Source: an uncultured Deefgea sp.
GTDB taxonomy: Bacteria > Pseudomonadota > Gammaproteobacteria > Burkholderiales > Chitinibacteraceae
NCBI GenBank assembly: GCA_963508915.1
Contig: CAUOZE010000007.1
Span: 55 to 64,054 of the forward strand
DNA: 64,000 bases
Reading direction: 5' to 3'
Shown here in pieces: positions 35,869 to 60,040 of this stretch; positions within the stretch are counted from its first letter, which is position 1; every line of letters starts with the position of its first letter. Under the pieces are notes generated by a model. It worked only from the letters and a program-made list of their open reading frames with translations, searched no databases and was not told the DNA's origin. Position numbers and translations under genes: made by a program.

Positions 35869-35998
35869 ATTTGGCCGATGTGATGCCGTGCCATATCTCA
35901 ATGAGAGATTAAATAGCGAAACGTAAACAGCGTACGTGTTGTTACGGTCTTCTTGGCGGAAAGCGTTCTTGAGTACAAAGGGCTTACAAGGGATTATC

Positions 35999-36217: not shown

Positions 36218-36261
36218 AATTTGCCTACATAGTGCCTACATGAAACTCCATGTAGGCAAAA
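36218..36261. repeat. Integrase arm-type binding sites (left)
   Basis: AATTTGCCTACATAGTGCCTACATGA plus inverted CATGTAGGCAAAA; same 26-mer at 59910-59935. Confidence 0.8.
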
Positions 36262-40816: not shown

Positions 40817-40939
40817 ACCATCTAGATGTTGCCATCTGTGGGGTTAAAAAGAATGTCGGCATAGGGTATGCGTACAGCATCACCTTGAAGTGGTATGCAG
40901 GTTTTGGATTGCCACCAAATTCCAAGCTACATAGTCGCC

Positions 40940-41360: not shown

Positions 41361-42959
41361 ATGCCCGTGAACACCTCTATTCAAGACCTTGAAAACCGCC
41401 TCTGGTCCGCTGCTGACCAACTTTGGGCGATGACCGACCTCAAGCCTTCCGAATTTTCAACGCCTGTTTTGGGGCTGCTGTTTTTGCGTTATGCCGAAAC
41501 CAAATTTGCCGCCGCCGAAGCGCGCTTTGCTGAGGACGGCCTGAGCGCTGCTGAACTCGATAAAACAGATTTTCAAGCCGATGGTGTGCTGTACCTCACG
41601 GGCATTGCGCGCTTTAGTTATTTGGTGAATTTACCCGAAGCCGAAAATCTCGGTTTGGCCGTTAATATGGCAATGGCAGCGGTCGAGCTAGAGAACGAAG
41701 AATTACGTGGCGTGCTGCCGCGCAGCTACACGCGCCTGGATAATGGCGTGATTCAAGAGCTATTGCGCTTGCTTGCGCCGATTAAGATTGAAGGCGATGC
41801 GTTTGGTCGCGTTTACGAGTATTTCCTCGGCAACTTCGCGATGAAGGAAGGCCAAAAGGGCGGCGTGTTTTACACCCCGACCAGTATCGTTAAACTAATT
41901 GTCGAAATCCTCCAGCCCTACCACGGGCGCATTTACGACCCCGCTTGCGGTTCGGGCGGTATGTTTGTGCAAAGCGCGGAATTTGTGAATCAACATAACA
42001 AACGCGCCGCCGATGAACTCACGGTATTTGGCACCGAGAAATCCGCCGATACCGTCAAACTCGGCAAAATGAATTTGGCCGTGCATGGCTTGTCGGGCGA
42101 CATTCGCGTTGCCAATAGTTTTTTTGAAGACCCGCACGAATCGCTGGGCAAGTTTGACTTTGTCATGGCCAATCCGCCGTTCAACGTCAGCGGCGTGGAT
42201 AAAGACCGTATCAAGGGCGACCCGCGCCTGCCGTTTGGCTTGCCAAGCACCGACAACGCCAATTACCTGTGGATTCAATACTTCTACAGCACGCTGAACG
42301 ACACGGGCCGCGCCGGTTTCGTCATGGCCAATTCAGCAGGCGACGCGCGCGGTAGTGAGCTGGAAATCCGCAAGCAAATGCTGCAAAACGGTGTGGTCGA
42401 TGCCGTCGTCAGTATCGGCTCTAACTTCTTCTACACCGTCACGCTGCCGTGTACTTTGTGGTTCTTTGATAAGGCCAAGCGCAGCCTTCCCCCTCTCCCC
42501 ACGGCGGGAGAGGGTCGGGGTGAGGGGCGCGTGCGCGGCAAAGAGACCGTGCTGTTCATCGACGCGCGCCACCTGTACCGCCAAGTGAGCCGTTCTGTGC
42601 GCGACTTCACGCCAACGCAAACCGAATTTCTTGCCAACATTGCCCGCCTGTATCGCGGCGAAGCGGTTGAAAACCTGCATGATAGTGCGGAACTCATTGC
42701 GCAGCATTTCCCCGCAGGCGTCTACGCTGACGCGGCAGGGCTATGCAAAGTGGCAACGCTGGCCGACATCGAAGCGCAAGGCTGGAGCTTGAATCCTGGG
42801 CGTTATGTCGGCGTGGCCGATGCTGCGGCGGATGATTTTGTGTTTGCTGAACGGCTGGAAGAGCTGAGCGAAGGATTGGTTGTGTTGAACGATGAGGCTC
42901 GTCAGTTGGAGTCGCTCATCGCGCAAAATATAGCGCTAATTTTGGATGGTGTAGCATGA
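41361..42959 (+). CDS. hsdM: Type I R-M methyltransferase subunit
   Basis: [22 protein letters not shown]. Confidence 0.97.
42485..42527. repeat. Palindromic REP-like element inserted in frame in hsdM
   Basis: CCCTCTCCC-CACGGC-GGGAGAGGG-TCGGGGTGAGGGG, encoding [14 protein letters not shown]. Confidence 0.75.
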
Positions 42960-44194
42960 GTGCGCGTCAAAAATTTAAGCTTGATGAGTTAGGTACTGTT
43001 GGTAGAGGTAAGTCTAAACATCGGCCTCGTAATGACCCCAGCCTTTATGGTGGCCCATATCCATTTTTTCAAACTGGCGACGTAAAGGCTGCTGAGCTTT
43101 ATTTGCGTGAATATTCGCAAACGTATAGCGATGCTGGATTGGCACAAAGCAAATTGTGGCAGCCAGGTACGCTTTGTATCACTATTGCCGCTAATGTCGC
43201 TGATACAGCAATTTTGGCAATTCCTGGTTGCTTCCCTGATAGCGTCGTTGGGTTTATCGCAAATCCTGAAAAAGCTGATGCTCGATTTATTAAATACTAT
43301 ATCGACGTTATTAAGCGGCAGATGGTTAGCGCCTCAAAAGGCACTACGCAAGATAATTTGAGCGTAGATAAGTTACTGATGTTTGATTTTGAAGTTCCGC
43401 TGGTCTGCGAGCAAACGCATATTGCAGATATTATTTCCGCCTATGACGACCTGATTGAGAACAACACGCGGCGGATTGCGGTGTTGGAGGAAATGGCGCG
43501 GCGGATTTATGAAGAATGGTTCGTCCACTTCCGCTACCCCGGCCACGAGCAAGCCCAAAAAGTAGAAACCGAGCTAGGCTTGGTGCCGGAAGGGTGGGAG
43601 GTTAAGCAGCTTGGCGAATGTTCCGTTTATGTGAATCGGGGCATTACCCCTAAGTATGACGATGCTGCTGAGGGCTTGGTTATCAATCAAAAATGCATTC
43701 GAAATGGCAAGCTAAGTATGGCTTTTGCAAGAAGACAGTCGAAAGTACCTCCAAGCGATAAAGTGGTGCGTTATGGTGATGTATTAATTAATTCAACAGG
43801 TGTTGGTACTCTTGGACGTGTTACTCAAATTTGTGAAAATTTGAATAATGTCACGGTAGATACGCATGTCAGTATTGTTCGTCCGAGGCCTGAGCTAGAT
43901 GTAGAGTTTTTTGGATTGGCACTGCTTCGGCTGGAGCCGCACTTTGAGCAACAAGGAGTCGGAGCAACTGGTCAAACAGAGTTGAGCCGCGCCCGTATTG
44001 CGGAAACTCCGATGCTCATTCCGCCGTTTGAATTGCAGGTGCAGTTTTCGAATATGGTTTCTGCAATGCGTAAGCAGCCACTAATTCTATCCAAGAAAAA
44101 CGCTAACCTCCGCCAAACCCGCGACCTACTCTTGCCGCGCCTGATTTCGGGCGAGCTGGACGTTTCTAAGCTGGTGCTGCCGGATGTGGCTTGA
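42956..44194 (+). CDS. hsdS: Type I R-M specificity subunit
   Basis: Two TRDs with conserved [17 protein letters not shown] and [17 protein letters not shown]; ATGA overlap with hsdM. Confidence 0.96.
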
Positions 44195-44346
44195 TGGGTA
44201 TGTGGTGCTGAGTGATGGTGGTAATGGGTTGTGAGTATATACCCGTTATGACTGTTTTGCACCCTGTCGCACGCCCCGTGGCTGCGCAAGCCCACCAACT
44301 TCGCCTACGAATGCTCTGTGCGTTGCAGAGTGAACGAAGCCGAAGC

Positions 44347-44452
44347 ATGCGCGCGTTTGCCGAGTCATGGCCGCAAGAGGCAATTGTCCAGCAGGCTGTT
44401 GGACAATAATCGTGGGTGCGAAAGTTGAAAGAACCGCAGTGGCGGATGAGGG
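44347..44452 (+). pseudogene. Remnant of a DUF1016/YhcG-family gene
   Basis: MRAFAESWPQEAIVQQAVGQ* then SW..KLKEP resembles the DUF1016 MRAFAEAWP..IVQQ...QLPW motif; in-frame TAA and deletions. Confidence 0.65.
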
Positions 44453-44456
44453 CGTA

Positions 44457-44906
44457 ATGTCGAATGTGGTGTTGGAATGTGGTCAGTGCGGTAAGGCCAA
44501 TAAGGTGGAAACCCAGTTTCAGATTAGCTGTGGGTGTTGCAAAGCACCGCTGGATACGCAGGCGTTTCGCCCTTATGCCGATTATTTTGAGCAACAAAAG
44601 CCCGCTAAAAAAAGCGGTGTGAGCAAAACGACGATGTTTGTGGTGGCGACGGTGACGGCGGTGAGTGGCTTTTTTTCGGCTGAATATGTGTCGCAGCGCG
44701 CGGCGGTTTCTCCGACCGAATACCGCTTCTTGGAGGCATGTATTTTGGGCTCTGAGCCAACAAACCATGCACGTTATCAGCGCAAAGTGGCCATTTGTAC
44801 TTGTGCATTTAATCAAACGCGCGACAGCCTTGCGGCCAAGCCTGAGCTAGATTTCGTAGCGACGTTTGAGCAGACTGTTACCGCGTGCGCAGGCGCGGTG
44901 CAATAA
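44457..44906 (+). CDS. Zn-ribbon + single TM + Cys-containing C-terminal domain protein
   Basis: CGQC...CGCC, TM MFVVATVTAVSGFF, C-terminal EAC/CTC/C. Confidence 0.7.
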   Translation: MSNVVLECGQCGKANKVETQFQISCGCCKAPLDTQAFRPYADYFEQQKPAKKSGVSKTTMFVVATVTAVSGFFSAEYVSQRAAVSPTEYRFLEACILGSEPTNHARYQRKVAICTCAFNQTRDSLAAKPELDFVATFEQTVTACAGAVQ

Positions 44907-44927
44907 CCCCAGGGGTTAAGCCTGGGG
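44907..44927. terminator. GC-rich hairpin between convergent genes
   Basis: CCCCAGG-GGTTAAG-CCTGGGG; no clear U-tract. Confidence 0.4.
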
Positions 44928-44933
44928 CTGCGA

Positions 44934-45074
44934 TTACTTGGCTTGCGTGTCGCCGGAGTCTAGGCGCTCTTCGTAATCATCTGGCCGCTCATCCAAACCG
45001 CGCGACTCCCAATAGGCGTCGTTATTTGGATTGAGCTGGTTGCTATGATTGTCGTTGTCGTCTTTTTTGCTCAT
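44934..45074 (-). CDS. Small acidic protein (46 aa)
   Basis: Manual translation MSKKDDNDNHSNQLNPNNDAYWESRGLDERPDDYEERLDSGDTQAK*. Confidence 0.7.
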   Translation of the reverse strand: MSKKDDNDNHSNQLNPNNDAYWESRGLDERPDDYEERLDSGDTQAK

Positions 45075-45086
45075 GGGCCAGGCTTC

Positions 45087-45194
45087 TTATTTAGTTTTCG
45101 GTGGGTTGTTATCACGGCCACCGCCTGATGGCTCTCCTGTTTTGCTCGGCCAATTGGGCTGGTTTGATGCGGTCAATGTTTGAGTTGTGTTCAT
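45087..45194 (-). CDS. Small Gly/Pro/Asn-rich peptide (35 aa)
   Basis: Manual translation MNTTQTLTASNQPNWPSKTGEPSGGGRDNNPPKTK*; GGAG RBS 7 nt upstream. Confidence 0.6.
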   Translation of the reverse strand: MNTTQTLTASNQPNWPSKTGEPSGGGRDNNPPKTK

Positions 45195-45216
45195 GGTGAG
45201 GCTCCATTTGAGTTGA

Positions 45217-45642
45217 ATGCTGGATAAGGCTTACCCAGTGATGGAGATAATACGGAGTGGTACTGTGACAGTACGTGACAGCGAGCAGGTGATTTCCCAT
45301 TGGCCGCAATTAAGCGTCATCATTGATGAATGCGGCGGTGCGGCGGCTTTTTTGCGTGGCATCGAAGGCGATGCGCTGGATGAGTTGCTGGACAAAAGAT
45401 ATGGCTGCGCAGACGGTGATGACATGCGCATTGAAAAGCTCAATGAGAGCTTAAGGCAGTGCTTGAGCCGCTATAAACGTGGCAAGAATTTACAGGGTAA
45501 TTCGCTGGATTTAGGGCGGCAATTATTGGAAATCTGGCTGAAGAAATATCCTAGTGCAATACGTTATACCGAACATGAAGAGCTTCGGCAGATGCGAGCT
45601 ATTTCACATGAGCTTGAACGGCTGCTTGCTGGCAATGCCTAG
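45217..45642 (+). CDS. Hypothetical protein (141 aa)
   Basis: ORF between the micro-ORFs and hsdR; no motif recognised. Confidence 0.6.
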   Translation: MLDKAYPVMEIIRSGTVTVRDSEQVISHWPQLSVIIDECGGAAAFLRGIEGDALDELLDKRYGCADGDDMRIEKLNESLRQCLSRYKRGKNLQGNSLDLGRQLLEIWLKKYPSAIRYTEHEELRQMRAISHELERLLAGNA

Positions 45643-45827
45643 CGCGTTGATTGCTAGCTTGTAAGATTGATGCGACTTGGGTAGTCTTTCGTCTATGTTC
45701 AGTTAAAAAATAAGATAATTCAGCAAAAATTAGTTTTCATTAGCTGACTATTTATCCTATTCGCTGGGCGAATTGAATGGTAAGTCTTTGATAAGACTGC
45801 TATTTGTATTGGATAAAAGGACCGTCA

Positions 45828-48800
45828 GTGCCCTATAACATCGAAAAACCAACCCCACATTCCGCGCGTGACGTGTCGGCTGGCTATGGCGAGCTGAATT
45901 TAGTTGAAGCGCCTGCCATTGAATTACTTAAAAATTTGGGCTGGCAGCATGCGGATTTGTTCAAAGAAAAAATAGGGCGTTTGGGCACTGAAGGGCGCGA
46001 GAGCGAAAGCCAAGTCATTTTGCCGAACCGCTTGCGGGCGGCATTGCAGCGGCTCAATCCTGGCTTGTCGCCATTGGCGTATGAGCTGGCGTTTGACGTG
46101 TTAAATACCGACCGTTCCCGTGAGTCGGCGGTGGTGGCGAATCAAGCGATTTATGCCTTGCTGCGCGACGGCGTCAAAGTCACCGTTCCCGACGCCGATG
46201 GTATGCCGAGCTTTGAAACGCTGGTGCTGGTGGACTGGAAAAATCCCGAGAACAATGAATATTTTCTGGCGACTCAACTTTGGGTGGCGGGGGATATGTA
46301 TCGCCGTCGCTGCGATGGTGTCGGCTATATCAATGGCTTGCCGCTGGTGTTCTTAGAATTTAAAGCGCCTGGTGTACATTTAAAAGCTGCCTTTGACGAA
46401 AACCTGCGCGATTACCGGGGGCAAAGCATCCCGCAATTGTTTCACTTCAATGCGTTTATCTTGTTATCCAATGGCCGAGAAACTAAGGTCGGTACGCTCA
46501 CGTCAATGTGGGAACACTTTGCCGAATGGAAGCGGATTTCGACCGAAGAAGAGCCCGCTAAGGTGTCGCTAGAAACCGCACTGCGTGGGATGTTGCTGCC
46601 TGAGCGTTTACTCGACCTGATTGAAAACTACACTCTGTTTGAACTGGTTCGTGGTGGGCTGGTGAAGAAGGTCGCTAAAAACCATCAATTCCTTGGTGTG
46701 AATAAAGCCATCGAGGAAGTGGGCAAGCTGAACGAGAACCAAGGGAAGTTGGGCGTGTTCTGGCATACCCAAGGCAGTGGCAAGAGTTTGTCGATGGTGT
46801 TCTTTACACAGAAAATCTTGCGCAAGCGTCCTGGCGCGTGGACTTTTGTGATTGTGACGGACCGCGAAGAACTTGATACGCAAATCTATAAAACCTTTGC
46901 CAATACGGGTAGTGTGGGCGCTGAGGTTCAAGCCACTAGCGCGGCGCACCTTAAAGAGTTGTTGGCAGGTAATCAGCGCTATGTGTTCACGCTGATTCAA
47001 AAATTCCGCAGTGAGGACGGTGCAGAATATCCGCTGTTGTCGAATCGTTCCGACATCATTGTGATTACCGACGAAGCGCATCGTAGCGAGTACGGCACGT
47101 TTGCAATGAATATGCGCAAGGCGCTGCCGAATGCGGCGTTTATTGGTTTTACCGGAACGCCATTGATTGCGGGCGAAGACGAAAAAACTCGCGCCGTGTT
47201 TGGTGATTATGTTTCGGTCTATAACTTCGCCCAGGCTATTCAAGACGGTGCAACGGTGCCGCTGTATTACGAGAATCGTATCCCCGCTTTGCAACTGACT
47301 AACGAAGATTTGAATGCCGACTTGGCGAGTATTTTGGAAAATGCCGACCTCGACGAGGACCAAGAGCAAAAACTAGAGCGCGAATTTGGCCGTCAATATC
47401 ACCTGATAACTCGTAACGACCGACTTGAAACCATCGCCGCTGACATCGTTGAGCATTTCACGGGTCGTGGGTATCGCGGCAAAGCGATGATGGTGTGCAT
47501 CGACAAGGCAACCGCCATTCGCATGTACGACAAGGTGCAAGCACATTGGCAAGCGACGCTGACACGCCTAAATGCCGAGCTAAAGTCGAGTACGGGTGAA
47601 CATGCCGAGGCTATACAGGCCCGTATCACCTTGATGCTCGATACCGATATGGCCGTGGTGGTGTCGCAAGGCCAAAACGAAGTGGCCGACCTGAAAGAGA
47701 AAGGCCTGGATATTGAGCCGCATCGCCGTCGCATGATGCAGGGTGATTTGGAAGAAGAATTCAAAAGCCCGACGACCAAGCTAAAACTGGTGTTTGTTTG
47801 CGCGATGTGGATTACGGGCTTTGACGTGCCGACTTGCTCGACGCTGTATCTGGATAAGCCGATGAAGGCGCATACCTTGATGCAGGCCATCGCCCGCGCT
47901 AATCGGGTGTCTGAAGGCAAAACCAGCGGCATGATTGTCGATTACGTCGGGATTTTCCGTCACCTCAAAGACGCGCTTTCTATTTATGCCAATTCAGGCG
48001 CGGGCGGTGCGGGTTGTGATGATTCGGGCGATGATTCAGGAAATGTCCCGCTAGAGGCGAAACAACAGCTTATTAGCTTGCTTGAGCAGTCCATTACCGA
48101 CGCGGAAATGTGGTGCCAAACTCAGCAAATTAGTATCACCGACATCATTGCTGCCGAAGGATTTCACCGTGTTGGCTTAATGATGGACGCGGTCGATGCC
48201 ATCGTCGCCAGTGATGATACTAAAGCGCAGTTTATGGCGCTGGCGGGCTTTGTGGCTAAACACTACAAGGCCATTTTGCCCGATACCCGCGCTGCGGATT
48301 ACGCGCCCAAAACGGTTGCGCTGGCGTTCTTGGCACGGCAAGTCAAAGCGCTGATGCCACCCGTCGATATTAGCGAGGTGATGAATGATATTGAGGCCTT
48401 GCTCGATGATTCTATTGCCACCGATGGGTATCACATTTCCGCCAGTGGTATGGCCAAAGCTTTGGTTGATTTGTCGGAAATTGACTTTGAAGCGCTGGAT
48501 GCCGAGTTTAAAAAGAGCAAGCGTAAACACGTTACAGCCGAACAGTTGAAGGGCGCGGTCGAGCAAAAAGTGAACGAGCTGGCGGCGAAAAATCCAAGTC
48601 GTGAAGGCTTGGTCGAAAAGCTGAAAAAACTGATTGATGCGTACAACGCTGGCGATATCAACATCGAAACGTATGTCGAGGAACTCAAGCAATTTACTAA
48701 AGAGTTGAAAGCGGAAGGGTTGCGTGGTGAATCGCTAGGGCTTAGCGAAGAAGAGTTGGCCGTGTTCGACATTTTGACTCAGCCCGACCCGCCACTCACG

Positions 48801-49025
48801 CCTGAACAAGAGCAAGAAGTACGCCGCGTAGCGAAAACGCTATTGACCAAGTTGAAAGCAGAAAGGCTGATTTTGGATTGGCGTTTAAAACAACAAGCCC
48901 GTGCTGCAGTGCAGAAAACCATCAGAGATATTTTTAGAACATTGCCACAACCCTATAACCCCGACCTGCGCCAGGAAAAAGCGGCTAGGGCTTATAGCTT
49001 TGTTTATGACAATTTGGCGGGGTAA
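45828..49025 (+). CDS. hsdR: Type I R-M restriction subunit
   Basis: FLEFKA nuclease motif, WHTQGSGKS, DEAHRS, GFTGTP, MWITGFD, QAIARANR; start uncertain (GTG 45828). Confidence 0.97.
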   Translation: MPYNIEKPTPHSARDVSAGYGELNLVEAPAIELLKNLGWQHADLFKEKIGRLGTEGRESESQVILPNRLRAALQRLNPGLSPLAYELAFDVLNTDRSRESAVVANQAIYALLRDGVKVTVPDADGMPSFETLVLVDWKNPENNEYFLATQLWVAGDMYRRRCDGVGYINGLPLVFLEFKAPGVHLKAAFDENLRDYRGQSIPQLFHFNAFILLSNGRETKVGTLTSMWEHFAEWKRISTEEEPAKVSLETALRGMLLPERLLDLIENYTLFELVRGGLVKKVAKNHQFLGVNKAIEEVGKLNENQGKLGVFWHTQGSGKSLSMVFFTQKILRKRPGAWTFVIVTDREELDTQIYKTFANTGSVGAEVQATSAAHLKELLAGNQRYVFTLIQKFRSEDGAEYPLLSNRSDIIVITDEAHRSEYGTFAMNMRKALPNAAFIGFTGTPLIAGEDEKTRAVFGDYVSVYNFAQAIQDGATVPLYYENRIPALQLTNEDLNADLASILENADLDEDQEQKLEREFGRQYHLITRNDRLETIAADIVEHFTGRGYRGKAMMVCIDKATAIRMYDKVQAHWQATLTRLNAELKSSTGEHAEAIQARITLMLDTDMAVVVSQGQNEVADLKEKGLDIEPHRRRMMQGDLEEEFKSPTTKLKLVFVCAMWITGFDVPTCSTLYLDKPMKAHTLMQAIARANRVSEGKTSGMIVDYVGIFRHLKDALSIYANSGAGGAGCDDSGDDSGNVPLEAKQQLISLLEQSITDAEMWCQTQQISITDIIAAEGFHRVGLMMDAVDAIVASDDTKAQFMALAGFVAKHYKAILPDTRAADYAPKTVALAFLARQVKALMPPVDISEVMNDIEALLDDSIATDGYHISASGMAKALVDLSEIDFEALDAEFKKSKRKHVTAEQLKGAVEQKVNELAAKNPSREGLVEKLKKLIDAYNAGDINIETYVEELKQFTKELKAEGLRGESLGLSEEELAVFDILTQPDPPLTPEQEQEVRRVAKTLLTKLKAERLILDWRLKQQARAAVQKTIRDIFRTLPQPYNPDLRQEKAARAYSFVYDNLAG

Positions 49026-49120: not shown

Positions 49121-52100
49121 TTGAGTAAGGCGCTGAGTATGGCTGATATGTTGATTAAACATTTAAATGAAAAAGGCAGTGCCCATTCGGGACTATCCTT
49201 GTTGGTAAATCAATGGGGGTTTGATGAAAAACTAATTCCCAAAGCGTTACAAACAATAGGCGGCCTTTTTCCTCATTACAGCAGGCATGATGAGTCCCAT
49301 AGTAAACAGATTTTAATTAATATTGAGCGCCTGCTCGGTGAGAATATAAAGCTGCTCACGGCTACAGATACTTGGCTTTTGCTTGAGGCTGCGTATTGGC
49401 ATGATATTGGTATGGTTGTTCCTCAGGAAGATATTGCCAATACGTTAAAATTAGCTGAATTTCAACAATATCTTGATTCAATTTGTAATACGCCGAACCA
49501 TGAGTTAGAGCGTTGTGCTAGAAATTTACGTACGAGAAATGATAGCAACAGTTTTTTTGATGCACGTTCACCGCTAGAAGCTGTTGGGCAGTTTGGACAG
49601 CTAATGGCTGAGTGGTTTCGCAGACAGCATGCAGGACGAGCAGCAAAAACAATTCAATCTCCTTGGGATAGTGCTGGAATTAGTTCTCCCCGCACAGAGC
49701 TGATACCTGCTCGACTCTTTAAATTGCTTGGACGAATTTGCCAAATGCACGGTTCACCATTTGAGGAGTTGTTGGCTCCGAATGGTTTACCTTTCCGAGA
49801 GGCGGGTTTAGCACAGGAGGATTGCCACCCCCGATTTATTGCTTGTCTGCTGCGTATGGGGGATTTATTGGATTTGGATGACAATCGTTTTTGCCCTGTT
49901 ATGCAGCGCATCGCGGGTGAAAACCGCCCCAAACTCAGTAAGGCGCATGAAGATAAGCATGCAGGGCTTCGGCATTTGCGAATAGACCGTGAACGAATTG
50001 AAATCAGCGCAGAGTGCGAAACGATTGATGGATATTTAGAAACCTTCAAATGGTTTGATTGGCTTAAGCAAGAAGTTCAAAATCAAATGGTGAACTGGCA
50101 AGATATCGTCCCAAGCCGGGATTTAGGGCTTTTGCCTACACTGGGTTCGTTAAAGGTTCGATTAAGTGGTGAGTTACAAATATTAAAAGAAGGGCAGCGC
50201 CCGCAGTTTGGAGTTGATGGCGTAAAAGCTATTGAGCTGTTGCAAGGAAATAATCTGTACAGCACGAAATTTTCCTGCATTCGTGAGTTATTGCAAAACG
50301 CGGTCGATGCTACTTTGCTACGGCTGTGGTTGAGTAAGAGTAAACGTAAAAGTGACACCGCTGAGGTTTGGGATAGTCCGTTGGCTGAAGGAGCTAGAGT
50401 TGCTCTTGATTCGGCATTGGTAGAAGTTAGCCTGACTGAAACCCCTGAGCCTAACGAGGATATGACTGATAAGTCTACTTGGACTTTAACAATTACTGAC
50501 GAAGGGACCGGTATTAGTCGGGAAGATTTGGCATACATGCTGCAAATTGGCGGCTCACATCGTAATCAGCAAAGGCAAGCTAAAATTAGCGCAATGCCGG
50601 AATGGATGAAGCCATCAGGTACTTTTGGTATTGGTTTGCAAAGTGTGTTCTTGTTGTGCAATGAAATAACACTAACGACTAAAAGTATATTTAGTAATGA
50701 AATATTGCAAATAACAATGCATAGCCCTACAGGGCCACATGAAGGTTTGGTGCTGTTAAAAATACTTGAGAATGACATCGGACGTTCTTTTGGCACCGAA
50801 ATTAAAGCTAAATTTCAACTAGATGCTTTTGCCAAATCATGGACTATATCGTTAGGTGGCAATATTTCTTTGGCCGAAAAATTCGTAAATGCAATGGACC
50901 CTCTTGATGCTTCATTCCCCTATGAAGCGGCTAAAATTGCGGATGAGTTCATTGCATTTTCTGCAAATTCACCCATTAAAATCGTACCCAAGTTAATAAC
51001 TTCTAATGGAAAACAACATATTGATGTTACTGCTAAGGTGCCGATTAGTAATGTTTCAAATCAATGGCGTTTTGTGAATGTTAATAGTCATGCGTTGGCA
51101 CTTCGGTACACTCCCGTTGTTTATGGTCGTTCAAATTGGAGTCTGAGTTTGCTTTATCGTGGTCAACCATTTGAATTTAAAAACAAGGTTTATTCTCACC
51201 TTCAACTGGAGGTTGACTTAATGTCAGGGAAGGCCGGCCATTGGTTGATTGCTAATCGCGAAAAGTTGGCGGGCAGTGCCGAGGGTGAATTGAACAAACT
51301 AATCCTGGCTGCACTTGAGCAGCAGGTGAGGAGTGATATTGCAGCTCCCGAAGATATTGAGATGCTTCATGAGAATAATCGACCAACGTATTCTTTTTTT
51401 CTTGAAGTGATGGCATTGAGTCATCAAGGTGGCTGGAAGGAGTTAGCCCAACTTTTCGATAAAGAATGGTTAGCTTTACCTTGTCGCTCAAAGATATATC
51501 CCACATTCCATGACGCATTTTTGGCACACTCTTGGACTCTAGGAGAGGCACCATCCCGTGGTGAACCTGAAGTTCTTGGATGTGATGTTTTAGTGGATAG
51601 CCCTAGTTGGGATGCTACCCTGCATATTGTTCTGAATGAGTGGTTAAAAGATGACCGCAGAACGGTGCAAGTGCAAGTACCTGAACTACGCGAAGAATCT
51701 GCTGTTGGTTGCTCAGAGGGGGACATACCTACGACATATTTAGAAGATGCAGTTAAATATCGTGTTCGTTATCTACTTAAAAAAGAGAAACAAGAGGCCT
51801 ATACGAACGACGCGTTAGCTACTCGGTTGGCTGCGGTTGCACGTCAAACATCTGGTAATTCTCGTTACTTATTAAATGTAGATGATATTAGGTGGAATAA
51901 ACTATGGTTGAAAGATGATGCTCAGGTGATGGCTCAAAGATTGTTTGATGTGACACCGCGAAATGCAAAATTTATTTTATTACCTTTTCTCTTTCGTGGT
52001 TTGGTTAGAGGAGTGGGGGTTTCGAGTGAAGCAACTTCAGAGCAATTGGATGCCTTATGCAAATGGATTCAGCCTAATTTGGTTTCTACAGTTACGCTAG

Positions 52101-52210
52101 AAGAAATTAGAGAGACTTACAAAAAGCTCATTGAGTATCTTGATGTTGATGTCATGGGCCCGTCGATACATAGTGCAAGATGGCGAACCTCACGAGGTCT
52201 TAGTGATTAA
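49121..52210 (+). CDS. HD-phosphohydrolase / GHKL (Hsp90-like) ATPase fusion protein
   Basis: HYSRHDESHS, AAYWHDIG, QHAGR, MHG, RMGDLLD (HD); IRELLQNAVDA, DEGTG, GTFGIGLQS (GHKL). Confidence 0.85.
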   Translation: MSKALSMADMLIKHLNEKGSAHSGLSLLVNQWGFDEKLIPKALQTIGGLFPHYSRHDESHSKQILINIERLLGENIKLLTATDTWLLLEAAYWHDIGMVVPQEDIANTLKLAEFQQYLDSICNTPNHELERCARNLRTRNDSNSFFDARSPLEAVGQFGQLMAEWFRRQHAGRAAKTIQSPWDSAGISSPRTELIPARLFKLLGRICQMHGSPFEELLAPNGLPFREAGLAQEDCHPRFIACLLRMGDLLDLDDNRFCPVMQRIAGENRPKLSKAHEDKHAGLRHLRIDRERIEISAECETIDGYLETFKWFDWLKQEVQNQMVNWQDIVPSRDLGLLPTLGSLKVRLSGELQILKEGQRPQFGVDGVKAIELLQGNNLYSTKFSCIRELLQNAVDATLLRLWLSKSKRKSDTAEVWDSPLAEGARVALDSALVEVSLTETPEPNEDMTDKSTWTLTITDEGTGISREDLAYMLQIGGSHRNQQRQAKISAMPEWMKPSGTFGIGLQSVFLLCNEITLTTKSIFSNEILQITMHSPTGPHEGLVLLKILENDIGRSFGTEIKAKFQLDAFAKSWTISLGGNISLAEKFVNAMDPLDASFPYEAAKIADEFIAFSANSPIKIVPKLITSNGKQHIDVTAKVPISNVSNQWRFVNVNSHALALRYTPVVYGRSNWSLSLLYRGQPFEFKNKVYSHLQLEVDLMSGKAGHWLIANREKLAGSAEGELNKLILAALEQQVRSDIAAPEDIEMLHENNRPTYSFFLEVMALSHQGGWKELAQLFDKEWLALPCRSKIYPTFHDAFLAHSWTLGEAPSRGEPEVLGCDVLVDSPSWDATLHIVLNEWLKDDRRTVQVQVPELREESAVGCSEGDIPTTYLEDAVKYRVRYLLKKEKQEAYTNDALATRLAAVARQTSGNSRYLLNVDDIRWNKLWLKDDAQVMAQRLFDVTPRNAKFILLPFLFRGLVRGVGVSSEATSEQLDALCKWIQPNLVSTVTLEEIRETYKKLIEYLDVDVMGPSIHSARWRTSRGLSD

Positions 52211-52461: not shown

Positions 52462-53061
52462 ATGCTAGCGGATTTATTACTTGGGCAGTATCGCAGACGG
52501 GTGCTGGCACTACTGCTGCTACACCCCGACAACGCATGGCATGTGCGCGAAATAGCGCGGTTGACGCAAACGCAAGCGGGTACACTCAACCGTGAACTGG
52601 CCAAATTGGCCGACGCTGGTGTGCTACTGGTGAGCAAGGTCGGTAATCAAAAGCATTACCGCGCTAATACTGATTGCCCCGTATTTTCTGAACTGGCGGG
52701 CTTGCTGCGCAAAACGGCGGGAGTGGCCGATGTGCTGACTGCGGCTTTGGCCGAGTTGGCTGAGCGAATTGATGTTGCCTTGGTCTTTGGCTCGGTTGCG
52801 CGCGGTGAAGAGCGTGCGGGTAGTGACATCGACGTGCTGGTGCTGGGTGAGGTTAATTTTGCCGAAGTGGTGGCGGCGTTATATCCACTGCAAGAGCAGC
52901 TTGGTCGAGAAATTAATCCCGCCGTATATAGCGTGGCTGAATTTGCCGACAAAACTGTACAGCAACAAGCATGGGCGATGGACGTATTAAAACAGCCGAA
53001 GTTATTTTTGATAGGTAATGAGCATGACCTTGGAAAACTTGCTGGCAAGTCAAAAAGCTGA
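52462..53061 (+). CDS. HTH + minimal nucleotidyltransferase (MNT-type antitoxin)
   Basis: N-terminal wHTH (WHVREIARLT...LNRELAKL); FGSVARG..SDIDVLV pol-beta motif. Confidence 0.88.
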   Translation: MLADLLLGQYRRRVLALLLLHPDNAWHVREIARLTQTQAGTLNRELAKLADAGVLLVSKVGNQKHYRANTDCPVFSELAGLLRKTAGVADVLTAALAELAERIDVALVFGSVARGEERAGSDIDVLVLGEVNFAEVVAALYPLQEQLGREINPAVYSVAEFADKTVQQQAWAMDVLKQPKLFLIGNEHDLGKLAGKSKS

Positions 53062-53186: not shown

Positions 53187-53942
53187 TCAGGCTAAGTCAT
53201 GAATAGTGCGACCAAGACTCAAGAAATAATTCTCAGTTACTCCGCGAGATGTTGAATGATTAACTATGAAAAAGTTCGTTGCTGGCGTTGGGCTCAATAG
53301 GACTGTTAATTGACAGTCAGGGTCAGGAGTTTCCTCTGTCCATATACTTTCCTGCCCAGTTACGGCTTGAACTATGCTTTTCCATGAGGGTAAATAAGTT
53401 CTCCCATAAAAAACAACATTTCTTGGGCGGTAGTTACGAATTTTCGTCGCTAATGTGTTTATTCGCTGAGGCTCAAGTTGGTTGCGATAAGCTCTGCGAT
53501 TTTGCAGCATAGTGTATTGGTGTTCTTCGGCCCAGGGAGTATATATCCAGCTAGTAATTCTTCTTGAAGCCAGAGGCATCAATTCAAGAAGACAGTGATT
53601 GGAGTTTGGTGTGCCAAACATGTTTGCTTGAAAGTCTCGTATCGCTTCAATATCAGCTCTTTTGTATCTTTGATACCCAAGGAGTATTCTGATTAGTCCT
53701 CTCCACGTAGGCTGAGTTGGGGGTCTCGCTCTATCAAAGTATTTGGACTTATCAATTACACGATGATACGTGACTAAATCAATGACGTCGCCAGCGCCCA
53801 GTCTTTGCCAGGCCTCTATTCGGGCTTGTGCTTCAGCTAAATCTTTGCCACCGCCTTCCTCCATGCCAATAAACCAAATTGGGGCTTTTAAATTGCCATA
53901 CCCGAAAAAATTATGAAGAAATCTGTCTATTAGCTCATGCAT
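53187..53942 (-). CDS. Uracil-DNA-glycosylase-superfamily-like protein
   Basis: GYGNLKAPIWFIGMEEGG resembles UDG motif A; FIVNHSTS resembles motif B; start set at MHELID. Confidence 0.6.
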   Translation of the reverse strand: MHELIDRFLHNFFGYGNLKAPIWFIGMEEGGGKDLAEAQARIEAWQRLGAGDVIDLVTYHRVIDKSKYFDRARPPTQPTWRGLIRILLGYQRYKRADIEAIRDFQANMFGTPNSNHCLLELMPLASRRITSWIYTPWAEEHQYTMLQNRRAYRNQLEPQRINTLATKIRNYRPRNVVFYGRTYLPSWKSIVQAVTGQESIWTEETPDPDCQLTVLLSPTPATNFFIVNHSTSRGVTENYFLSLGRTIHDLA

Positions 53943-54129
53943 ATACTCTCCATTGGAGTGACAAAAGTGTTTTTTATTGGCCGACTGTGAACTGTCACTA
54001 AGTTTATCTGCGGCGCATATTACGTGCATTAATCTCTGGCTAGGTAGTGTGGAATTGTTTGCTCATATTTGATTTGCAAAAGCGAGTTGCAGTAATTGTC
54101 GCGGCAAACCTTTCTGACTTCGTCATACA

Positions 54130-55587
54130 ATGAATTATTCACCAACGTATGATATTGATTCATTTATTGGCAGGCGAGCTATGGAAACACAAGTCTATTT
54201 TTCAGGTATTCGCAAAGAAATCATCCAGCGTTTGGACAAGGCAACAGAGCGGGTTTTGGTCGCGGTGGCGTGGCTTACCGACAAGTCGCTTTTTGATGCG
54301 CTAGTTTCGTGCCAGCGCCGTGGGGTGGTCGTTTCACTTGCGGTGCTAGACGATACAATTAACCGTCAATCCTCCATTGCTTGGGAGCGCCTAACTGCCT
54401 TGGGCGGTAATCTATACTGGATACCCGAAGGAACAGACCATCATGGCTCTTTGCATCACAAGTTCTGCCTGATTGATACGCATACCGTGATGAATGGCAG
54501 CTTTAACTGGACCTACCGCGCCAGCCGTGCCGATGAAAATATGACGGTGTTTGAAGGCGACGCAGCAATAGCTCTTCGTTTCCAGCAAGAATTTGTCCGG
54601 TTACTCAGCAAATATGGCCATGGCCCCGCGCCAGTGGTTATCGATTCCGCCAAGCTCATGGCGCGGCTATCAATTATTGCTAGCTTATTAGAATTGGCCG
54701 AATTTGACGAAATTCCCCAGCACATCAACAAAATTGCCAACGCCCAAGGGCAGACTGACATTGATAGTTTAATGCAATACGTTCAGCAACAAGACTGGCA
54801 AGCGGCGCAAGAAGTTGTGCGTTGCATTTTGTCTCGGGGTACGGCTGTTACGCTTTATCTTGACCCACTCGCAGAGGCGTTGAATTGGCAAATTCGCCTT
54901 CTGGAAATGGAGATTATTGCGCTAGAAACATCGCTAGGTGAAATGCTGCGGCAAATCCACTTGTTTGATTACCAGCAGAACCAAGCTATTGGTGATTTAA
55001 CGCGTGAATATCTAGAGGTTCGTTGGCGTTACTTGGCCCAGTTACATCAAAGAAAACAGCAGCAAAAAACATATGAGGACGCTGAGGCAGCCAAAAAAAC
55101 CTTCCATGATTATCAGCAAGCGCAATCCGAGCTTGCGCACGAAGCCCAGCCCATTGCACTTGATGCAGAGCAGCAAGCGGAGCTAAAACAGCTCTACCGA
55201 AAACTGGCTATGCAGAGCCACCCAGATAGGGTGGCTGCACATCTGCAAGAGCAGGCCAAGGTCTTATTTCAGCAATTACAGGCAGCCTATCAAAATAACG
55301 ATTTAGCGGCATTGCAGCGCATCAAGCTACAAATTGAACAAGGCCTTGCCCCAGTAGAACAGGTGGCCTTATCCATTGAGCGGCTAGAGCTGCGTATGAC
55401 TGAACTGCAAAGTGTTCAAGCGCAACTTGCCCAACAAATTGGAGCGCTGAGTCAGACCTTGGTTTGGCAAACGCTAAGCACGCACACGGATTGGGCGGTA
55501 TGGTTTGCCGAGCAAGCTGAGCGACTGAGAACAGAAATCGCAAATTATCGAGCACAGCTTGAAGAGCTTGAGGCGATGCCGATATGA
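54130..55587 (+). CDS. PLD-family (single HKD) nuclease domain + coiled coil + J-domain-like protein
   Basis: VAVAWLTD, HHKFCLID..NGSFNWT..ADEN; LKQLYRKLAMQSHPDRV...AKVLFQQLQAAY; alternative start ATG 54181. Confidence 0.85.
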   Translation: MNYSPTYDIDSFIGRRAMETQVYFSGIRKEIIQRLDKATERVLVAVAWLTDKSLFDALVSCQRRGVVVSLAVLDDTINRQSSIAWERLTALGGNLYWIPEGTDHHGSLHHKFCLIDTHTVMNGSFNWTYRASRADENMTVFEGDAAIALRFQQEFVRLLSKYGHGPAPVVIDSAKLMARLSIIASLLELAEFDEIPQHINKIANAQGQTDIDSLMQYVQQQDWQAAQEVVRCILSRGTAVTLYLDPLAEALNWQIRLLEMEIIALETSLGEMLRQIHLFDYQQNQAIGDLTREYLEVRWRYLAQLHQRKQQQKTYEDAEAAKKTFHDYQQAQSELAHEAQPIALDAEQQAELKQLYRKLAMQSHPDRVAAHLQEQAKVLFQQLQAAYQNNDLAALQRIKLQIEQGLAPVEQVALSIERLELRMTELQSVQAQLAQQIGALSQTLVWQTLSTHTDWAVWFAEQAERLRTEIANYRAQLEELEAMPI

Positions 55588-58244
55588 ATCTCGTCCCTAT
55601 TGGTGCGCAACTACCTACGGCTCTCACAAGGCGTTGCGATATTGTGGCGAGCACACTCGCTACCGTTGAGCAGCAAGAAATCATGCAGTTTTTTCGTGAT
55701 TTCCCTGAGTTGTTTTATTACTGCGTGCAACGGCACTATCCACTAACGGAAGAGCAAGTAACTCGCTATCCAGACTTTTGGGATTGGTCTCTATTGAGTA
55801 AAAATAGAGACTTGATGCGGTCTTATGATTTGGTTGAGCAGCATGCTGGAAAATTAAACTTGGGCTGGTTGAGTTGGAATGGGCTTTTGCCATGGTCAGG
55901 TGATTTGATTGAGCGTTATGCTGGCCAGTGGGATTGGAGGGCGCTAAGTTGGAATGGGGAGTTGCCATGGTCGGATGACTTGATTGAGCGTTATGTTTGC
56001 CAGTGGGATTGGAGGGCGCTAAGTAGGAATGGGGCGTTACCATGGTCGGATGACTTGATTGAGCGTTATGTTTGCCAGTGGGATTGGAGGGCGCTAAGTG
56101 GGAATGAGGCATTGCCATGGTCGGTTGATTTGCTAGGGCGTTATGTTGACCGCTGGGATTGGGGTTACTTAAGTAGAAATACAGCTTTACCATGGTCGAG
56201 TGATTTGGTTGAATGTTACGCTCTTCGATGGAATTGGGAGGAGTTAAGCTTCAATCACGCATTGCCTTGGTCAATTGAAATGATTGAACATTTCTCCGCC
56301 CAATGGGATTGGGAAAATTTGAGTTTGAACCACTCCTTGCTTTGGTCGTGTGAGTTGCTTGAACGTTTTGCCGACCAATGGGATTGGATAACGATAAGCT
56401 TTAATCGCGCAGCGCCTTGGACGCTTGAGTTAACGAAGCGTTATGCGAACACGTCGAATTGGCAAGGGCGGGGCGTAAATGGTTTCCTTCCATGGTCGCC
56501 TGATTTGATTGAGCGCTATGCTGACCGATATGATTGGGAAACACTGAGTTGGCATGTTATTTTACCGTGGTCGATTGATTTAATTGAATATTATTCTGAC
56601 CGATGGGATTGGGGTTCGTTGAGTTGGAATGATGGCGTGATTTGGTCGTATGAATTAATAGAGCGCTTTTCTGACCGATGGGCTTGGCCGATTCTAAGTC
56701 AATGCCATTCTTTGCCTTGGTCGAATGAATTGATTGAGCGTTATGCCCAGCGATGGAGATGGTTGGACCTGAGTTTAAATAGTCGTTTGCCTTGGTCTAG
56801 GGCCTTGTACCGAAAATTTAGCATGAAATTTGATACTTTAGCGGTCTCGACAATTGAAGACTTTGGTATCCAGTCTTTGCTGCCCCAGCAAATCAACCAG
56901 CTATTAACTGAAAACTTAGGGCGTCAATCAAAATTCAAACCTGAAAATAATAAACCCCTCGTGCATGACCAGGTGATGGATTCGGAATTTGAATGTAGCA
57001 AGACGGCTGATGTGACGGCGCAAAATTTAAGCGCAGAATACTACTCGAAAAAAAACTTAGTTAGCGCTGACCGCGCCAATGAAATTAGTGCACAGCTAAA
57101 CAATACGAACAGCGGTATCGACCTTGAAATGATGCAGGATGGGATTGTTTTAGCTGGCTATCACATCGAAAAAGGGGCGCGTACATTTGCCGCTTATGCC
57201 GAGGCAATGATTGGCGATTTAGGCGAGGCAGTAAAACCATATCTTAAATCATGGTATATGAGTGTGAAGTACGACCCTCGCGCTGCTGGCATAGAAGGCT
57301 TGAGCAGCGCCGCCGAGGTGGAAGCCGCTGATATTGATGCCTTAGCAACTCCCGAAGACCACGAAGCAGAGCTGGCAAACGACACTTTAGATGACGTGCA
57401 CGCGGATAGCACTGATGATGTGAAGGCAAGTAGTGCGGCTCTGGGGCAAGTAAAGATTGATCTTGTAAATGCACTTTACCACCGTGATAACATTTTTTTG
57501 CATGAGCGAAAGGCTAATATCTCCCCTGAACTGAGTGACCTCGAGCAGCGCTATGAAACCACCAAAGGCAAATTTGAGCTAGATACGAAGGGGGTTCGTA
57601 ACGCTTCAGAACTTCTCCCCGCACTCTCAAAAGTAATTGGCTTGCTGATGGAACAAGGCTTGCGAAGCTTTGCCGAGGTAGTTCAAACAACTTATTCATT
57701 GCTAGTTCGTAACGGGCTTGACACAAATTTACTGGCACAAGTGAGCGACCAGCGATGGGCCGCGGCCTACAACGGGGTTGCTGAGGATTACCAAGGTACG
57801 GAAGGTCTGGATGATGTGTGGAAACAAAGTGCAAAGGCAATTATTAAATCAATGCAGTCGGTCGTGCCAGGTGCTAGCTCTTATTTAACGTCCGAACAAG
57901 AGAAAGCCATTATGCCAATTTTGGTGCGCGTGTTAGATGTTGCTTTCCGTCTTGGGTATTACAAATTCAAGGATGCAGCAAAATTCATTCTTGATGAGAT
58001 TCGAGGGGCAATTAGCGCAGAAGTGGCCGACGCGATAACACTTGACAATTTGCAAGGTGCATACATTGCAATGTCAACTAGATACGAAAACGCCGACAGT
58101 GCCGAGGAAGTTATTGCGGTCAAAAGCGTCGATGAAATCAACGCGCACACGCTAATTGACCTTCACGCGCCGACCTACGAAGCCCACGAATCAGAGCTGG
58201 CCGACAACCCTGTGGATGATGTTGTGGAAGCGGAAAGCAGATAA
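55584..58244 (+). CDS. Trp-rich 25-aa repeat protein with C-terminal helical modules
   Basis: 14 repeats of consensus WDWxxLSxNxxLPWSxxLIERYxxx; C-terminal GARTFAAYAEAMIGDLGEAVKPYLKSWY; ATGA overlap with the upstream gene. Confidence 0.85.
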   Translation: MNLVPIGAQLPTALTRRCDIVASTLATVEQQEIMQFFRDFPELFYYCVQRHYPLTEEQVTRYPDFWDWSLLSKNRDLMRSYDLVEQHAGKLNLGWLSWNGLLPWSGDLIERYAGQWDWRALSWNGELPWSDDLIERYVCQWDWRALSRNGALPWSDDLIERYVCQWDWRALSGNEALPWSVDLLGRYVDRWDWGYLSRNTALPWSSDLVECYALRWNWEELSFNHALPWSIEMIEHFSAQWDWENLSLNHSLLWSCELLERFADQWDWITISFNRAAPWTLELTKRYANTSNWQGRGVNGFLPWSPDLIERYADRYDWETLSWHVILPWSIDLIEYYSDRWDWGSLSWNDGVIWSYELIERFSDRWAWPILSQCHSLPWSNELIERYAQRWRWLDLSLNSRLPWSRALYRKFSMKFDTLAVSTIEDFGIQSLLPQQINQLLTENLGRQSKFKPENNKPLVHDQVMDSEFECSKTADVTAQNLSAEYYSKKNLVSADRANEISAQLNNTNSGIDLEMMQDGIVLAGYHIEKGARTFAAYAEAMIGDLGEAVKPYLKSWYMSVKYDPRAAGIEGLSSAAEVEAADIDALATPEDHEAELANDTLDDVHADSTDDVKASSAALGQVKIDLVNALYHRDNIFLHERKANISPELSDLEQRYETTKGKFELDTKGVRNASELLPALSKVIGLLMEQGLRSFAEVVQTTYSLLVRNGLDTNLLAQVSDQRWAAAYNGVAEDYQGTEGLDDVWKQSAKAIIKSMQSVVPGASSYLTSEQEKAIMPILVRVLDVAFRLGYYKFKDAAKFILDEIRGAISAEVADAITLDNLQGAYIAMSTRYENADSAEEVIAVKSVDEINAHTLIDLHAPTYEAHESELADNPVDDVVEAESR
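55779..56828 (+). repeat. In-frame 75-bp tandem repeat array (14 units)
   Basis: Period 75 nt (e.g. CCATGGTCGG at 55965 and 56040); units 3-5 nearly identical in DNA. Confidence 0.9.
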
Positions 58245-58310: not shown

Positions 58311-58763
58311 TTAACCGTTCAACACAGGTACAAGCTGGCCGTTTTGCTGCTCGATGACGACCGTTGTTATCGCCAGCGGCTCATCAGGCAATTTGGGGTG
58401 GATTTGTCGGTAACCATTCGTTGGGCAGACCACCAATTGTGCTGGAACGGTTTTGGCTAAATGTTCAATCAGCTCGGCAAATAAATCCGCATGCCCATTT
58501 GGCGTGCGTAGCACGGCGGTACTAGTAATACCCTGCATCGATTCCCCGTTGGGCCCCACCAAAGTGAAATTTTTAGCCACGGGAATCCACTTTGCGGTAA
58601 GAAAATCCGACCTAGCGAGGCAACGCAATATATTGAGTTTTTCTGTATCTGTGCCGTGCAATGCATAGCTCTTGCCTGCTAGGCGTTGGATGTTCCCATC
58701 TTCGTCTGAATAGGCCCAGAGGTTGATAACGACTTCAGCTGTTTTGTGTGATTCACCCAGCAT
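58311..58763 (-). CDS. Hypothetical protein (150 aa)
   Basis: Clean ORF convergent on the repeat gene; no motif recognised. Confidence 0.65.
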   Translation of the reverse strand: MLGESHKTAEVVINLWAYSDEDGNIQRLAGKSYALHGTDTEKLNILRCLARSDFLTAKWIPVAKNFTLVGPNGESMQGITSTAVLRTPNGHADLFAELIEHLAKTVPAQLVVCPTNGYRQIHPKLPDEPLAITTVVIEQQNGQLVPVLNG

Positions 58764-58900: not shown

Positions 58901-59242
58901 TTTTCTTGGGGGCTTGCTGCGCAAAACTACGGCGGGGTGGTCGATGTGTTGACTGCGGCCTTTGCTGGAGTTGGCTGTGCGAATTGATTTTTTATTCAGT
59001 AGCGCACGGTGAAGAGCGTGTTGGCAGCTACATTAACGTGCTGGTGCTGAGAGAAGTGAACTTTGCCGAAGTGATGGCTCTACATCTATTGCACATAGTT
59101 GCCGAATTCGCAGACAAAGCCACTCTGGAACAAGCATGGGCGCTGGAGGTACTAAAATAGACGAAATTGTTTTTGATAGGAGGCGAGCATGACCTTGGAA
59201 AACTTGCGGGCCATTAACAAGCTGATTCGCTCCCCCGTGTAA
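58901..59242 (+). pseudogene. Degenerate second copy of the MNT gene plus partner stub
   Basis: Aligns by eye to ~52683-53040 (GGGCTTGCTGCGCAAAAC, TTTGCCGAAGTG, ACAAGCATGGGCG, GAGCATGACCTTGGAAAACTTGC), with deletions and a CAG>TAG stop. Confidence 0.85.
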
Positions 59243-59889: not shown

Positions 59890-59935
59890 CATGTAGGCAA
59901 AAAATACTGAATTTGCCTACATAGTGCCTACATGA
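59890..59935. repeat. Integrase arm-type binding sites (right)
   Basis: CATGTAGGCAAAA plus AATTTGCCTACATAGTGCCTACATGA, identical to the left-end motifs. Confidence 0.8.
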
Positions 59936-59942
59936 GATTTTG

Positions 59943-60040
59943 GAGCGGAAATGAACAAGGCCCCAACTTTCGTTGAGGCCTTGATTTTACTGGGGTGGCT
60001 GATGGGGCTCGAACCCACGACAACAGGAATCACAATCCTG
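59943..60040. repeat. att site (tRNA-proximal copy)
   Basis: 98-bp repeat of 35999-36096. Confidence 0.95.

Follow-up and report, generated by a model that had tools for sequence, protein, structure and literature searches.

Nucleases of the phospholipase D (PLD) type with one HKD motif per chain, such as Nuc (pKM101/Salmonella, 1byr), NucT of Helicobacter pylori and Zucchini/MitoPLD, need to form a dimer in order to build a single active site. They are proteins of ~150-200 residues, stand-alone, and either secreted or membrane-anchored. Here we describe a protein, PLD-J, in which a domain of this type is fused to a J domain, and which is encoded together with a tryptophan (Trp)-repeat partner in a 64,000-nt stretch of DNA from an uncultured Deefgea sp. 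(GCA_963508915.1, contig CAUOZE010000007.1, positions 55 to 64,054 of the forward strand; hereafter the window). PLD-J shares with the Nuc group the single HKD per chain, the fold (Foldseek TM-scores of 0.66-0.76) and the spacing of the motif. It differs from that group in being cytoplasmic and in adding a helical insert, a coiled coil, a J domain, a C-terminal tail and a coupled partner gene.

The other systems that come close to this locus involve chaperones. In Shewanella oneidensis, the operon AtcJ-AtcC-AtcB encodes a class-C J protein whose C-terminal extension holds its operon partner and brings DnaK to it (PMC6715715; bioRxiv 10.64898/2026.09.07.749886). The likeness of AtcJ to PLD-J is functional only: beyond the J domain the two show no sequence relation (NCBIfam AtcJ model, E 0.052, far below the cut-off), and the combination of AtcJ homology with the C-terminal PX7W partner-binding motif was not found in PLD-J. 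Unlike PLD-J, AtcJ has no enzyme domain, serves in cold adaptation and is not carried on mobile islands. Phage sensing by bNACHT25 needs the host DnaJ (PMC12169576), which resembles the logic we propose below in that an Hsp70 co-chaperone enters the trigger of a nuclease-bearing defence protein; there, however, the housekeeping DnaJ acts in trans on a STAND NTPase, whereas in PLD-J the effector has a J domain of its own and the locus encodes no NTPase. Finally, chaperone-based conflict systems have been predicted, among them MoxR-vWA ternary systems and GTPase systems with Hsp70, GrpE and DnaJ-fused FNIII proteins (PMC7159879), and Hsp70-like domains occur in CoCoNuT type IV restriction (PMC11090510). 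Like the PLD-J cassette, these bring together ATP-dependent chaperone modules, variable effectors and superstructure-forming repeats at mobile loci, but they encode their own ATPase and none has the PLD-J fusion or a Trp-repeat partner. By term search, PLD is unmentioned in PMC7159879, and neither DnaJ nor J-domain is mentioned in PMC11090510. A full-text literature search for J-domain and PLD with defence or conflict terms found no published description of the PLD-J architecture. The cassette combines known kinds of parts, a PLD-nuclease effector and chaperone-dependent conflict logic, in an uncharacterised yet widespread architecture.

The PLD/J-domain fusion had been proposed from the DNA sequence of the window. 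What had been observed there was confirmed, and the interpretation put on it in that original prediction, a nuclease gated by Hsp70, was supported in part, for the fusion itself. The open reading frame (ORF) at 54130-55587 (+) is real, with HHKFCLID (54454-54477) and HPD (55219-55227) exactly at the sites given for them. Its start, however, had probably been placed too far upstream: 54130 opens the longest ORF, and the gene probably begins at ATG 54181 (54181-55587, +; 468 residues). This is where the copy in the database and every homologue start ('MET/MKTQ'), and it is preceded by a stretch containing AGG. The single-HKD, Nuc-like PLD domain spans residues 1-144 (54181-54612, +) according to Pfam PLDc_2, the PDB profile search and Foldseek. 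The GSFNWT motif that had been noticed past HHKFCLID supplies the GSxN that completes the PLD signature HxK(x)4D(x)6GSxN (HHKFCLIDTHTVMNGSFN, about 54454-54513). PLDc_2 (PF13091) matches the protein with an E-value of 1.3e-24, and a profile of 26 PLD-J homologues searched against PDB found Nuc (1byr, E 6e-15) as well as Zucchini and NucT. Structure prediction by AlphaFold2 from 80 homologues (mean predicted local distance difference test, pLDDT, 82.7; predicted template modelling score, pTM, 0.63) gave the same picture, its top Foldseek ranks being Nuc (1byr, TM 0.76), NucT (6ehi, TM 0.72), Zucchini and FAM83. With Nuc, NucT and Zucchini as its nearest relatives, the domain is predicted to be a Nuc-type nuclease and, as originally suspected, nuclease-like rather than lipase-like.

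Past the PLD domain, a helical insert (residues 156-221; 54646-54843, +) is modelled as four helices and is found only in HKD-intact members of the family and in direct PLD/Trp-repeat fusions. It is followed by the long coiled coil of the original prediction, which the model renders as a helical hairpin (residues 229-319; 54865-55137, +) of helices 229-292 and 295-319. Given this coiled coil, dimerisation of PLD-J is plausible. The J domain (residues 329-388; 55165-55344, +) comprises helix II, the HPD at 55219-55227, and helices III and IV; in the model, the PLD fold at 1-144 is joined through the intervening segments to a helix at 329-346, HPD at 347-349 and helices at 353-371 and 375-388. 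The Pfam model DnaJ (PF00226) matches with an E-value of 1.1e-6 and 29.1 bits, narrowly above its gathering cut-off of 27.8; the match runs from position 13 to position 51 of the 63 in the profile and takes in only helix II, HPD and helix III. The profile of the PLD-J family, in turn, matches many solved J domains in PDB (E 3e-7 to 1e-5), and helix II with its Y-R-K...HPDR is similar to the DnaJ consensus, so that the assignment of the HPD region as a J domain holds. So does the remark that a canonical helix I is not evident: no separate helix I is seen in the AlphaFold2 model, and the 50 matches listed by Foldseek for the full-length model all fall on the PLD part.

The chain ends in a conserved region of three helices (residues 399-465; 55375-55575, +) with near-invariant W438, F442 and L449, which we regard as a candidate docking site for the partner. 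We also considered whether its W-rich stretch might be a cryptic Trp-repeat unit that completes the partner solenoid, and rejected this, since the hidden Markov model (HMM) of the repeat unit scored it at E ~1, no better than shuffled sequence. A scan for consensus promoters gave no signal exceeding the shuffled expectation.

The size of the family was measured with HMMER by exhaustively searching 1.84 billion representatives, with clusters counted at 50% identity. At E<=1e-30 the search gave 182 clusters of PLD-J, most of which match from end to end over 455-490 residues. Members of the family occur in Gammaproteobacteria, Betaproteobacteria and Bacteroidota. Among the 110 full-length representatives listed, HxK(x)4D is present in 97, HPD in 109 and both in 96; HPD is moreover invariant among the 80 aligned homologues, a conservation far beyond chance. 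The fusion is thus a real and conserved one, with both sets of motifs under selection, and in the window it sits in a defence island. One further record deserves mention. In Salmonella, a 391-residue 'DnaJ family molecular chaperone' (NZ_CP149222.1, L106:4344-5519) lacks both a PLD domain and a repeat neighbour but has the coiled coil, J domain and tail in common with PLD-J, at 34% identity over 167 residues. Its neighbours pheP and rclABC are of an ordinary chromosomal type; the record itself is listed among plasmids. The protein represents a PLD-less branch of the PLD-J scaffold in Enterobacteriaceae.

Directly downstream, the partner gene (55584-58244, +; 886 residues), which the original prediction had overlooked, starts within the stop of PLD-J, in an ATGA overlap. 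Its N-terminal cap (residues 1-65; 55584-55778, +) is conserved in all Trp-repeat partners and leads into 14 Trp-rich repeats of 25 residues (residues 66-415; 55779-56828, +), which form an alpha-solenoid, each unit contributing two helices of 6 residues. Within the repeat, W1, W3, L6, S7, N9, L12, P13, W14, S15 and L18 make up the framework, and positions 4, 5, 8, 10, 11, 16 and 24 are highly variable. Two neighbouring units share an identical 45-nt core, which indicates a recent duplication of the unit. AlphaFold2 modelled residues 1-455 with very high confidence (pLDDT 92.5, pTM 0.82) as an alpha-solenoid capped at both termini, the N-terminal cap being helical.

The Trp-repeat solenoid has no Pfam family, and Foldseek found no match to it among the solved structures of PDB (best E 0.6). 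Against BFVD, on the other hand, it resembles predicted structures from entomopoxviruses, giant viruses and Bacillus phage G (gp558-563), with E-values from 8.5e-20 to 1e-10 and a probability of 1.0. The entomopoxvirus proteins belong to the 'tryptophan repeat gene family', one of the viral multigene families of unknown function (PMC12484599). These viral families have the same predicted solenoid fold with ~25 residues per unit; the proteins are only 17-25% identical to the partner, so that common descent is not shown, and unlike the partner they have no link to J domains or PLD. In our view, the Trp-repeat protein probably provides the system with its specificity.

The association of the two genes recurs across the family. 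Genes downstream of PLD-J in distant loci are 39-54% identical to partner residues 1-455, the ATGA-type overlap of the partner start with the PLD-J stop is found again in relatives, and the repeat-unit HMM detected a Trp-repeat partner beside PLD-J in 56 fetched loci, including the window. The partner is translationally coupled to PLD-J and looks obligate. Its type, however, is not fixed. All 15 HKD-intact loci with readable flanks have a solenoid neighbour, which is a Trp-repeat protein in nine, a leucine-rich repeat (LRR) protein in two and a tetratricopeptide repeat (TPR) protein in four. An LRR gene takes the place of the Trp-repeat gene in Methylobacter (with an overlapping start) and in Moraxella, and in four Hymenobacter genomes a TPR gene lies directly upstream of PLD-J, the starts overlapping wherever gene calls have been recorded. 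An N-terminal 'tag' shared across partner types was not confirmed: the ~48-residue N-terminus is kept in 56 of 56 Trp-repeat partners, and its HMM misses the LRR partner of Methylobacter, in which only an 'M-x-A-L-I-P' start is alike, by eye.

In other organisms the repeat module is also found fused to other domains (the set of fusion proteins included P0183, P0082, P0094, P0108, P0112, P0138 and P0171). In P0082, a coiled coil, J domain and tail continue into Trp-repeats, with a partner-type N-terminus ~75 residues past the tail; P0183 joins an Hsp70 nucleotide-binding domain to Trp-repeats. In all, the Trp-repeat module is linked to the Hsp70 system in three independent architectures. In P0102, P0143, P0154 and P0192, PLD and the same helical insert are fused directly to Trp-repeats, and further fusions carry TIR, HNH, RNase T, uracil-DNA glycosylase (UDG) or HRDC domains, or, in at least a dozen proteins, Ser/Thr kinases. 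Such a pattern is typical of a module for recognition or adaptation that is used promiscuously and joined to effectors of the conflict type. As a separate observation, the RNase T-type domain is fused to Trp-repeats in P0171, P0176 and P0182, and a DEDD (RNase T-type) exonuclease gene lies one to three genes downstream of the partner in three loci (L009:16094-16807, L016:13781-14494 and L001:11467-12948); this exonuclease is possibly a second effector.

The reading that we prefer, tentatively and with a rough probability of 0.4, is that PLD-J and its partner form a mobile two-component sensor/effector cassette for biological conflict that uses the host DnaK as an ATP-driven switch. Its role in conflict would probably be anti-phage. 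According to this reading, the Nuc-type single-HKD nuclease, kept dimer-capable by the long helical hairpin, carries its own J domain, and the Trp-repeat solenoid would be the specificity or sensor subunit, its N-terminal cap binding the C-terminal helices of PLD-J. Once the solenoid engages a ligand, the J domain would recruit housekeeping DnaK-ATP and trigger hydrolysis; DnaK would then clamp and remodel the complex, bringing two PLD domains together in an active site that cuts nucleic acid. Host Hsp70 would thereby fill the role that STAND or AAA+ NTPases play in other sensor/effector systems. In the original prediction, phage-driven titration or engagement of DnaK could license the dimerisation itself; constitutive dimers would be a simpler consequence of the long helical hairpin.

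Whether the J domain serves the nuclease alone can be judged from a clade in which the HKD residues have been lost. In ~55 Comamonadaceae genomes, the PLD-J/partner pair occupies a fixed position inside the flagellar gene cluster, flanked by two cytoplasmic Sel1-repeat proteins and near genes for a sigma-54 activator, a FlgP-like protein and FliK. In these flagellar PLD-J proteins the HKD motif has lost its His and Lys, while HPD and the partner are retained. A maximum-likelihood tree places them in one clade (support 94/87), sister to a 12-row HKD-intact clade that contains the window protein (97/86). Since their PLD domain derives from active nucleases, the flagellar clade represents one loss of the HKD and a re-use of the cassette, and since it keeps HPD and partner, the J domain serves the partner complex and not only the nuclease. 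The sequences of this clade thus weigh against the J domain being a mere on/off gate of the nuclease. The order of the flagellar block (L003-L007, L013-L069; e.g. L004:6813-12674) is Sel1-repeat protein, PLD-dead J protein, Trp-repeat partner, a protein of 71-78 residues and a second Sel1-repeat protein; both Sel1 proteins have no signal peptide and are MotX-like by NCBIfam.

The fixed flagellar position, with its dead PLD and intact HPD, would be readily explained if the pair were a non-immune co-chaperone module comparable to AtcJ-AtcC, in which DnaK is brought to a client held by the repeats, for the assembly or regulation of some complex, and the PLD domain is a handle that binds nucleic acid or a ligand, or a housekeeping nuclease. 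PLD-less relatives of the scaffold, such as the Salmonella J protein, and the AtcJ precedent (PMC6715715) point in the same direction. We nevertheless consider this explanation unlikely for the window. The clade of the window protein keeps the full catalytic motif across phyla, and it occurs at variable or mobile sites. Nine other genomes of the same genus and 15 more of the same family, when searched, yielded no full-length PLD-J. Moreover, the domains to which the repeats are fused elsewhere (TIR, HNH, PLD, RNase T) are typical conflict effectors.

The same architecture would also suit a guard, the idea of the original prediction, in which continuous J-stimulated binding of DnaK keeps the complex inactive until a phage diverts or overloads DnaK, whereupon the PLD domains would pair and cut DNA, leading to abortive infection. 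This has a precedent for chaperone guarding in bNACHT25 and DnaJ (PMC12169576). It would have to read the housekeeping pool, since the island encodes no Hsp70 of its own; the 3.2-Mb genome encodes DnaK and HscA. We find it quite unlikely, however, because it leaves the swappable repeat partner without a clear role, because heat or proteotoxic stress of any kind would be enough to set off the nuclease, and because the HPD kept in the HKD-dead flagellar clade is better explained if DnaK is recruited to a target than if a nuclease is repressed.

A third alternative arises from the C-terminal part of the partner (56949-58241, +). This extension is specific to the window locus, the C-terminal 430 residues of the protein being absent from other partners, and it includes a phage DarB-like module (residues 506-585; 57099-57338) that is 74% identical to a segment of a 4,877-residue DarB-like polyvalent protein of Agrobacterium phage Atu_ph08, in which it is placed between InPase and PBECR1 domains. 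Like proteins in Sinorhizobium and Pseudomonas phages are 62-75% identical to it. In all, 71 phage records match the extension, and the 80-residue module has no Pfam family. Weaker, diverged copies of the module seem to follow it in the extension.

Phage and viral J proteins are known to hijack the host DnaK. The cassette could be a weapon or addiction module acting on behalf of the island and not of the host, for the establishment of the island, for anti-defence or for post-segregational killing, by hijacking DnaK. The close match of its extension to part of a giant phage protein would fit such a role, as would the PHROG families that match the PLD domain, the J region and the repeats, the abundance of Trp-repeat solenoids in giant viruses, entomopoxviruses and Bacillus phage G, and a Hymenobacter copy of the cassette within an element that carries ArdC, MPTase-PolyVal and IS110. 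Yet neither the full PLD-J protein nor the whole cassette was found in the phage and plasmid records searched, the repeat region is matched, weakly, by only two phage records, the DarB-like module is a feature of the window locus and not of the family, and the cassette sits among the cargo defence genes of the island. We therefore judge this alternative very unlikely. For the sensor/effector reading, by contrast, it is an attractive idea, drawn from the sequence match, that the DarB-like module may act as bait for injected phage proteins.

The cassette and its neighbours lie in a 24-kb integrative island (35969-60040). Its ends are copies of a 128-nt direct repeat, one at 35969-36096 and the other, which overlaps tRNA-His, at 59913-60040. 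Within this tRNA-His island lie the integrase (36277-37587) and, as cargo, a type I restriction-modification system (41361-49025). Past hsdR by 96 bp and on the same strand is the gene of a 1029-residue HD-CE/GHKL protein (49121-52210), with a Pfam HD-CE domain (E 1e-56), a GHKL ATPase domain and a weak PADLOC match to the C-terminal part of the RT_UG24 model. A nucleotidyltransferase/helix-turn-helix gene of the island matches the defence candidate PDC-M05A (E 6e-81). Among relatives, the neighbours of the pair include HigBA, VapC with an insertion sequence, Phd, DUF2971 and RNase T genes. Taken together, these surroundings are suggestive of a defence role, and the horizontally acquired two-gene cassette looks like an undescribed chaperone-dependent anti-invader system.

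Several points weigh against this reading. Location in a defence island is not proof of a defence function. PADLOC gave only weak, domain-level matches for PLD-J itself, to DrmC (the best, E 4.4e-8), DpdK and MkoB (to 1e-3); PLD-J resembles these proteins of DISARM, Dpd and Mokosh in having a PLD-type nuclease domain in a defence context, but the companion genes of those systems (DrmA/B, Dpd, MkoA) were not found among the ORFs screened at 49.1-59.7 kb. The Pfam DnaJ match clears its cut-off by just 1.3 bits, and no separate helix I of the J domain is seen. The loci compared here, from which the conservation of the pair and the partner swapping are read, were retrieved by an HPDRV-type peptide pattern and are few in number. 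The flagellar clade means that the core of J domain and partner can work without nuclease activity and outside defence. Lastly, the direction in which DnaK would control the complex is a guess.

Two further genes adjoin the pair. Upstream and divergent, a 280-residue protein (53187-54029, -), whose membership in the cassette is unproven, has no match in Pfam, NCBIfam, PHROG, PADLOC or PDB. That it might be a UDG-like glycosylase is unsupported, given this absence of database matches and of similarity to the UDG domain of the Trp-repeat/UDG fusion. Downstream, and convergent to the partner, is a protein of 150 residues (58311-58763, -), the homologue of which in the closest relative locus (L001:10050-10505, 34% identity) is co-directional and directly past the partner. 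Its family is rare, being present in 2 of 400 genomes of the class, there without PLD-J or repeats, and we regard it as a possible accessory and not as a third component.

Repeats in the DNA around these genes bear on how the block arrived. The 3' part of the PDC-M05A-like gene (52693-53055) has a decayed second copy 6.2 kb downstream (58905-59220; 78-86% identity in three collinear pieces). The intact gene and the decayed copy flank the four genes from the 280-residue to the 150-residue protein, so that this block is bracketed by direct repeats, possibly the trace of a cassette insertion or of tandem cassettes. At the island ends, a perfect 26-nt direct repeat (36218-36243 and 59910-59935), just inside or next to the 128-nt repeats, is probably a core att or arm-type site of the island integrase. 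In the intergenic region upstream of hsdM (40930-41320) we observed two more pairs of direct repeats, one of 64 nt (84% identity, spacing 203 nt) and one of 20 nt (perfect, spacing 195 nt).

If the sensor/effector reading is correct, the family would add a new mechanistic class to bacterial immunity, in which effectors are plugged into the universal Hsp70 machine by a J domain of their own. It would also tie together the host chaperones that take part in phage sensing, the chaperone-type ATPases of predicted conflict systems and the viral Trp-repeat families. In its most far-reaching form, which we regard as doubtful, the J domain built into the effector would make housekeeping Hsp70 the ATP-driven activation switch in place of STAND or AAA+ modules, and interchangeable solenoids (Trp-repeat, LRR, TPR) would be the pattern receptors; in the window, with its captured DarB-like module, the receptor could recognise injected polyvalent proteins by homotypic binding. 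The cassette, at ~4.1 kb and two genes, is easily tested in E. coli. The J-domain field gains a widespread and uncharacterised class-C family (~180 clusters at 50% identity) with enzymatic cargo, and the Comamonadaceae provide a case from nature in which a conflict cassette lost its catalytic residues and was put to new use in a flagellar locus.

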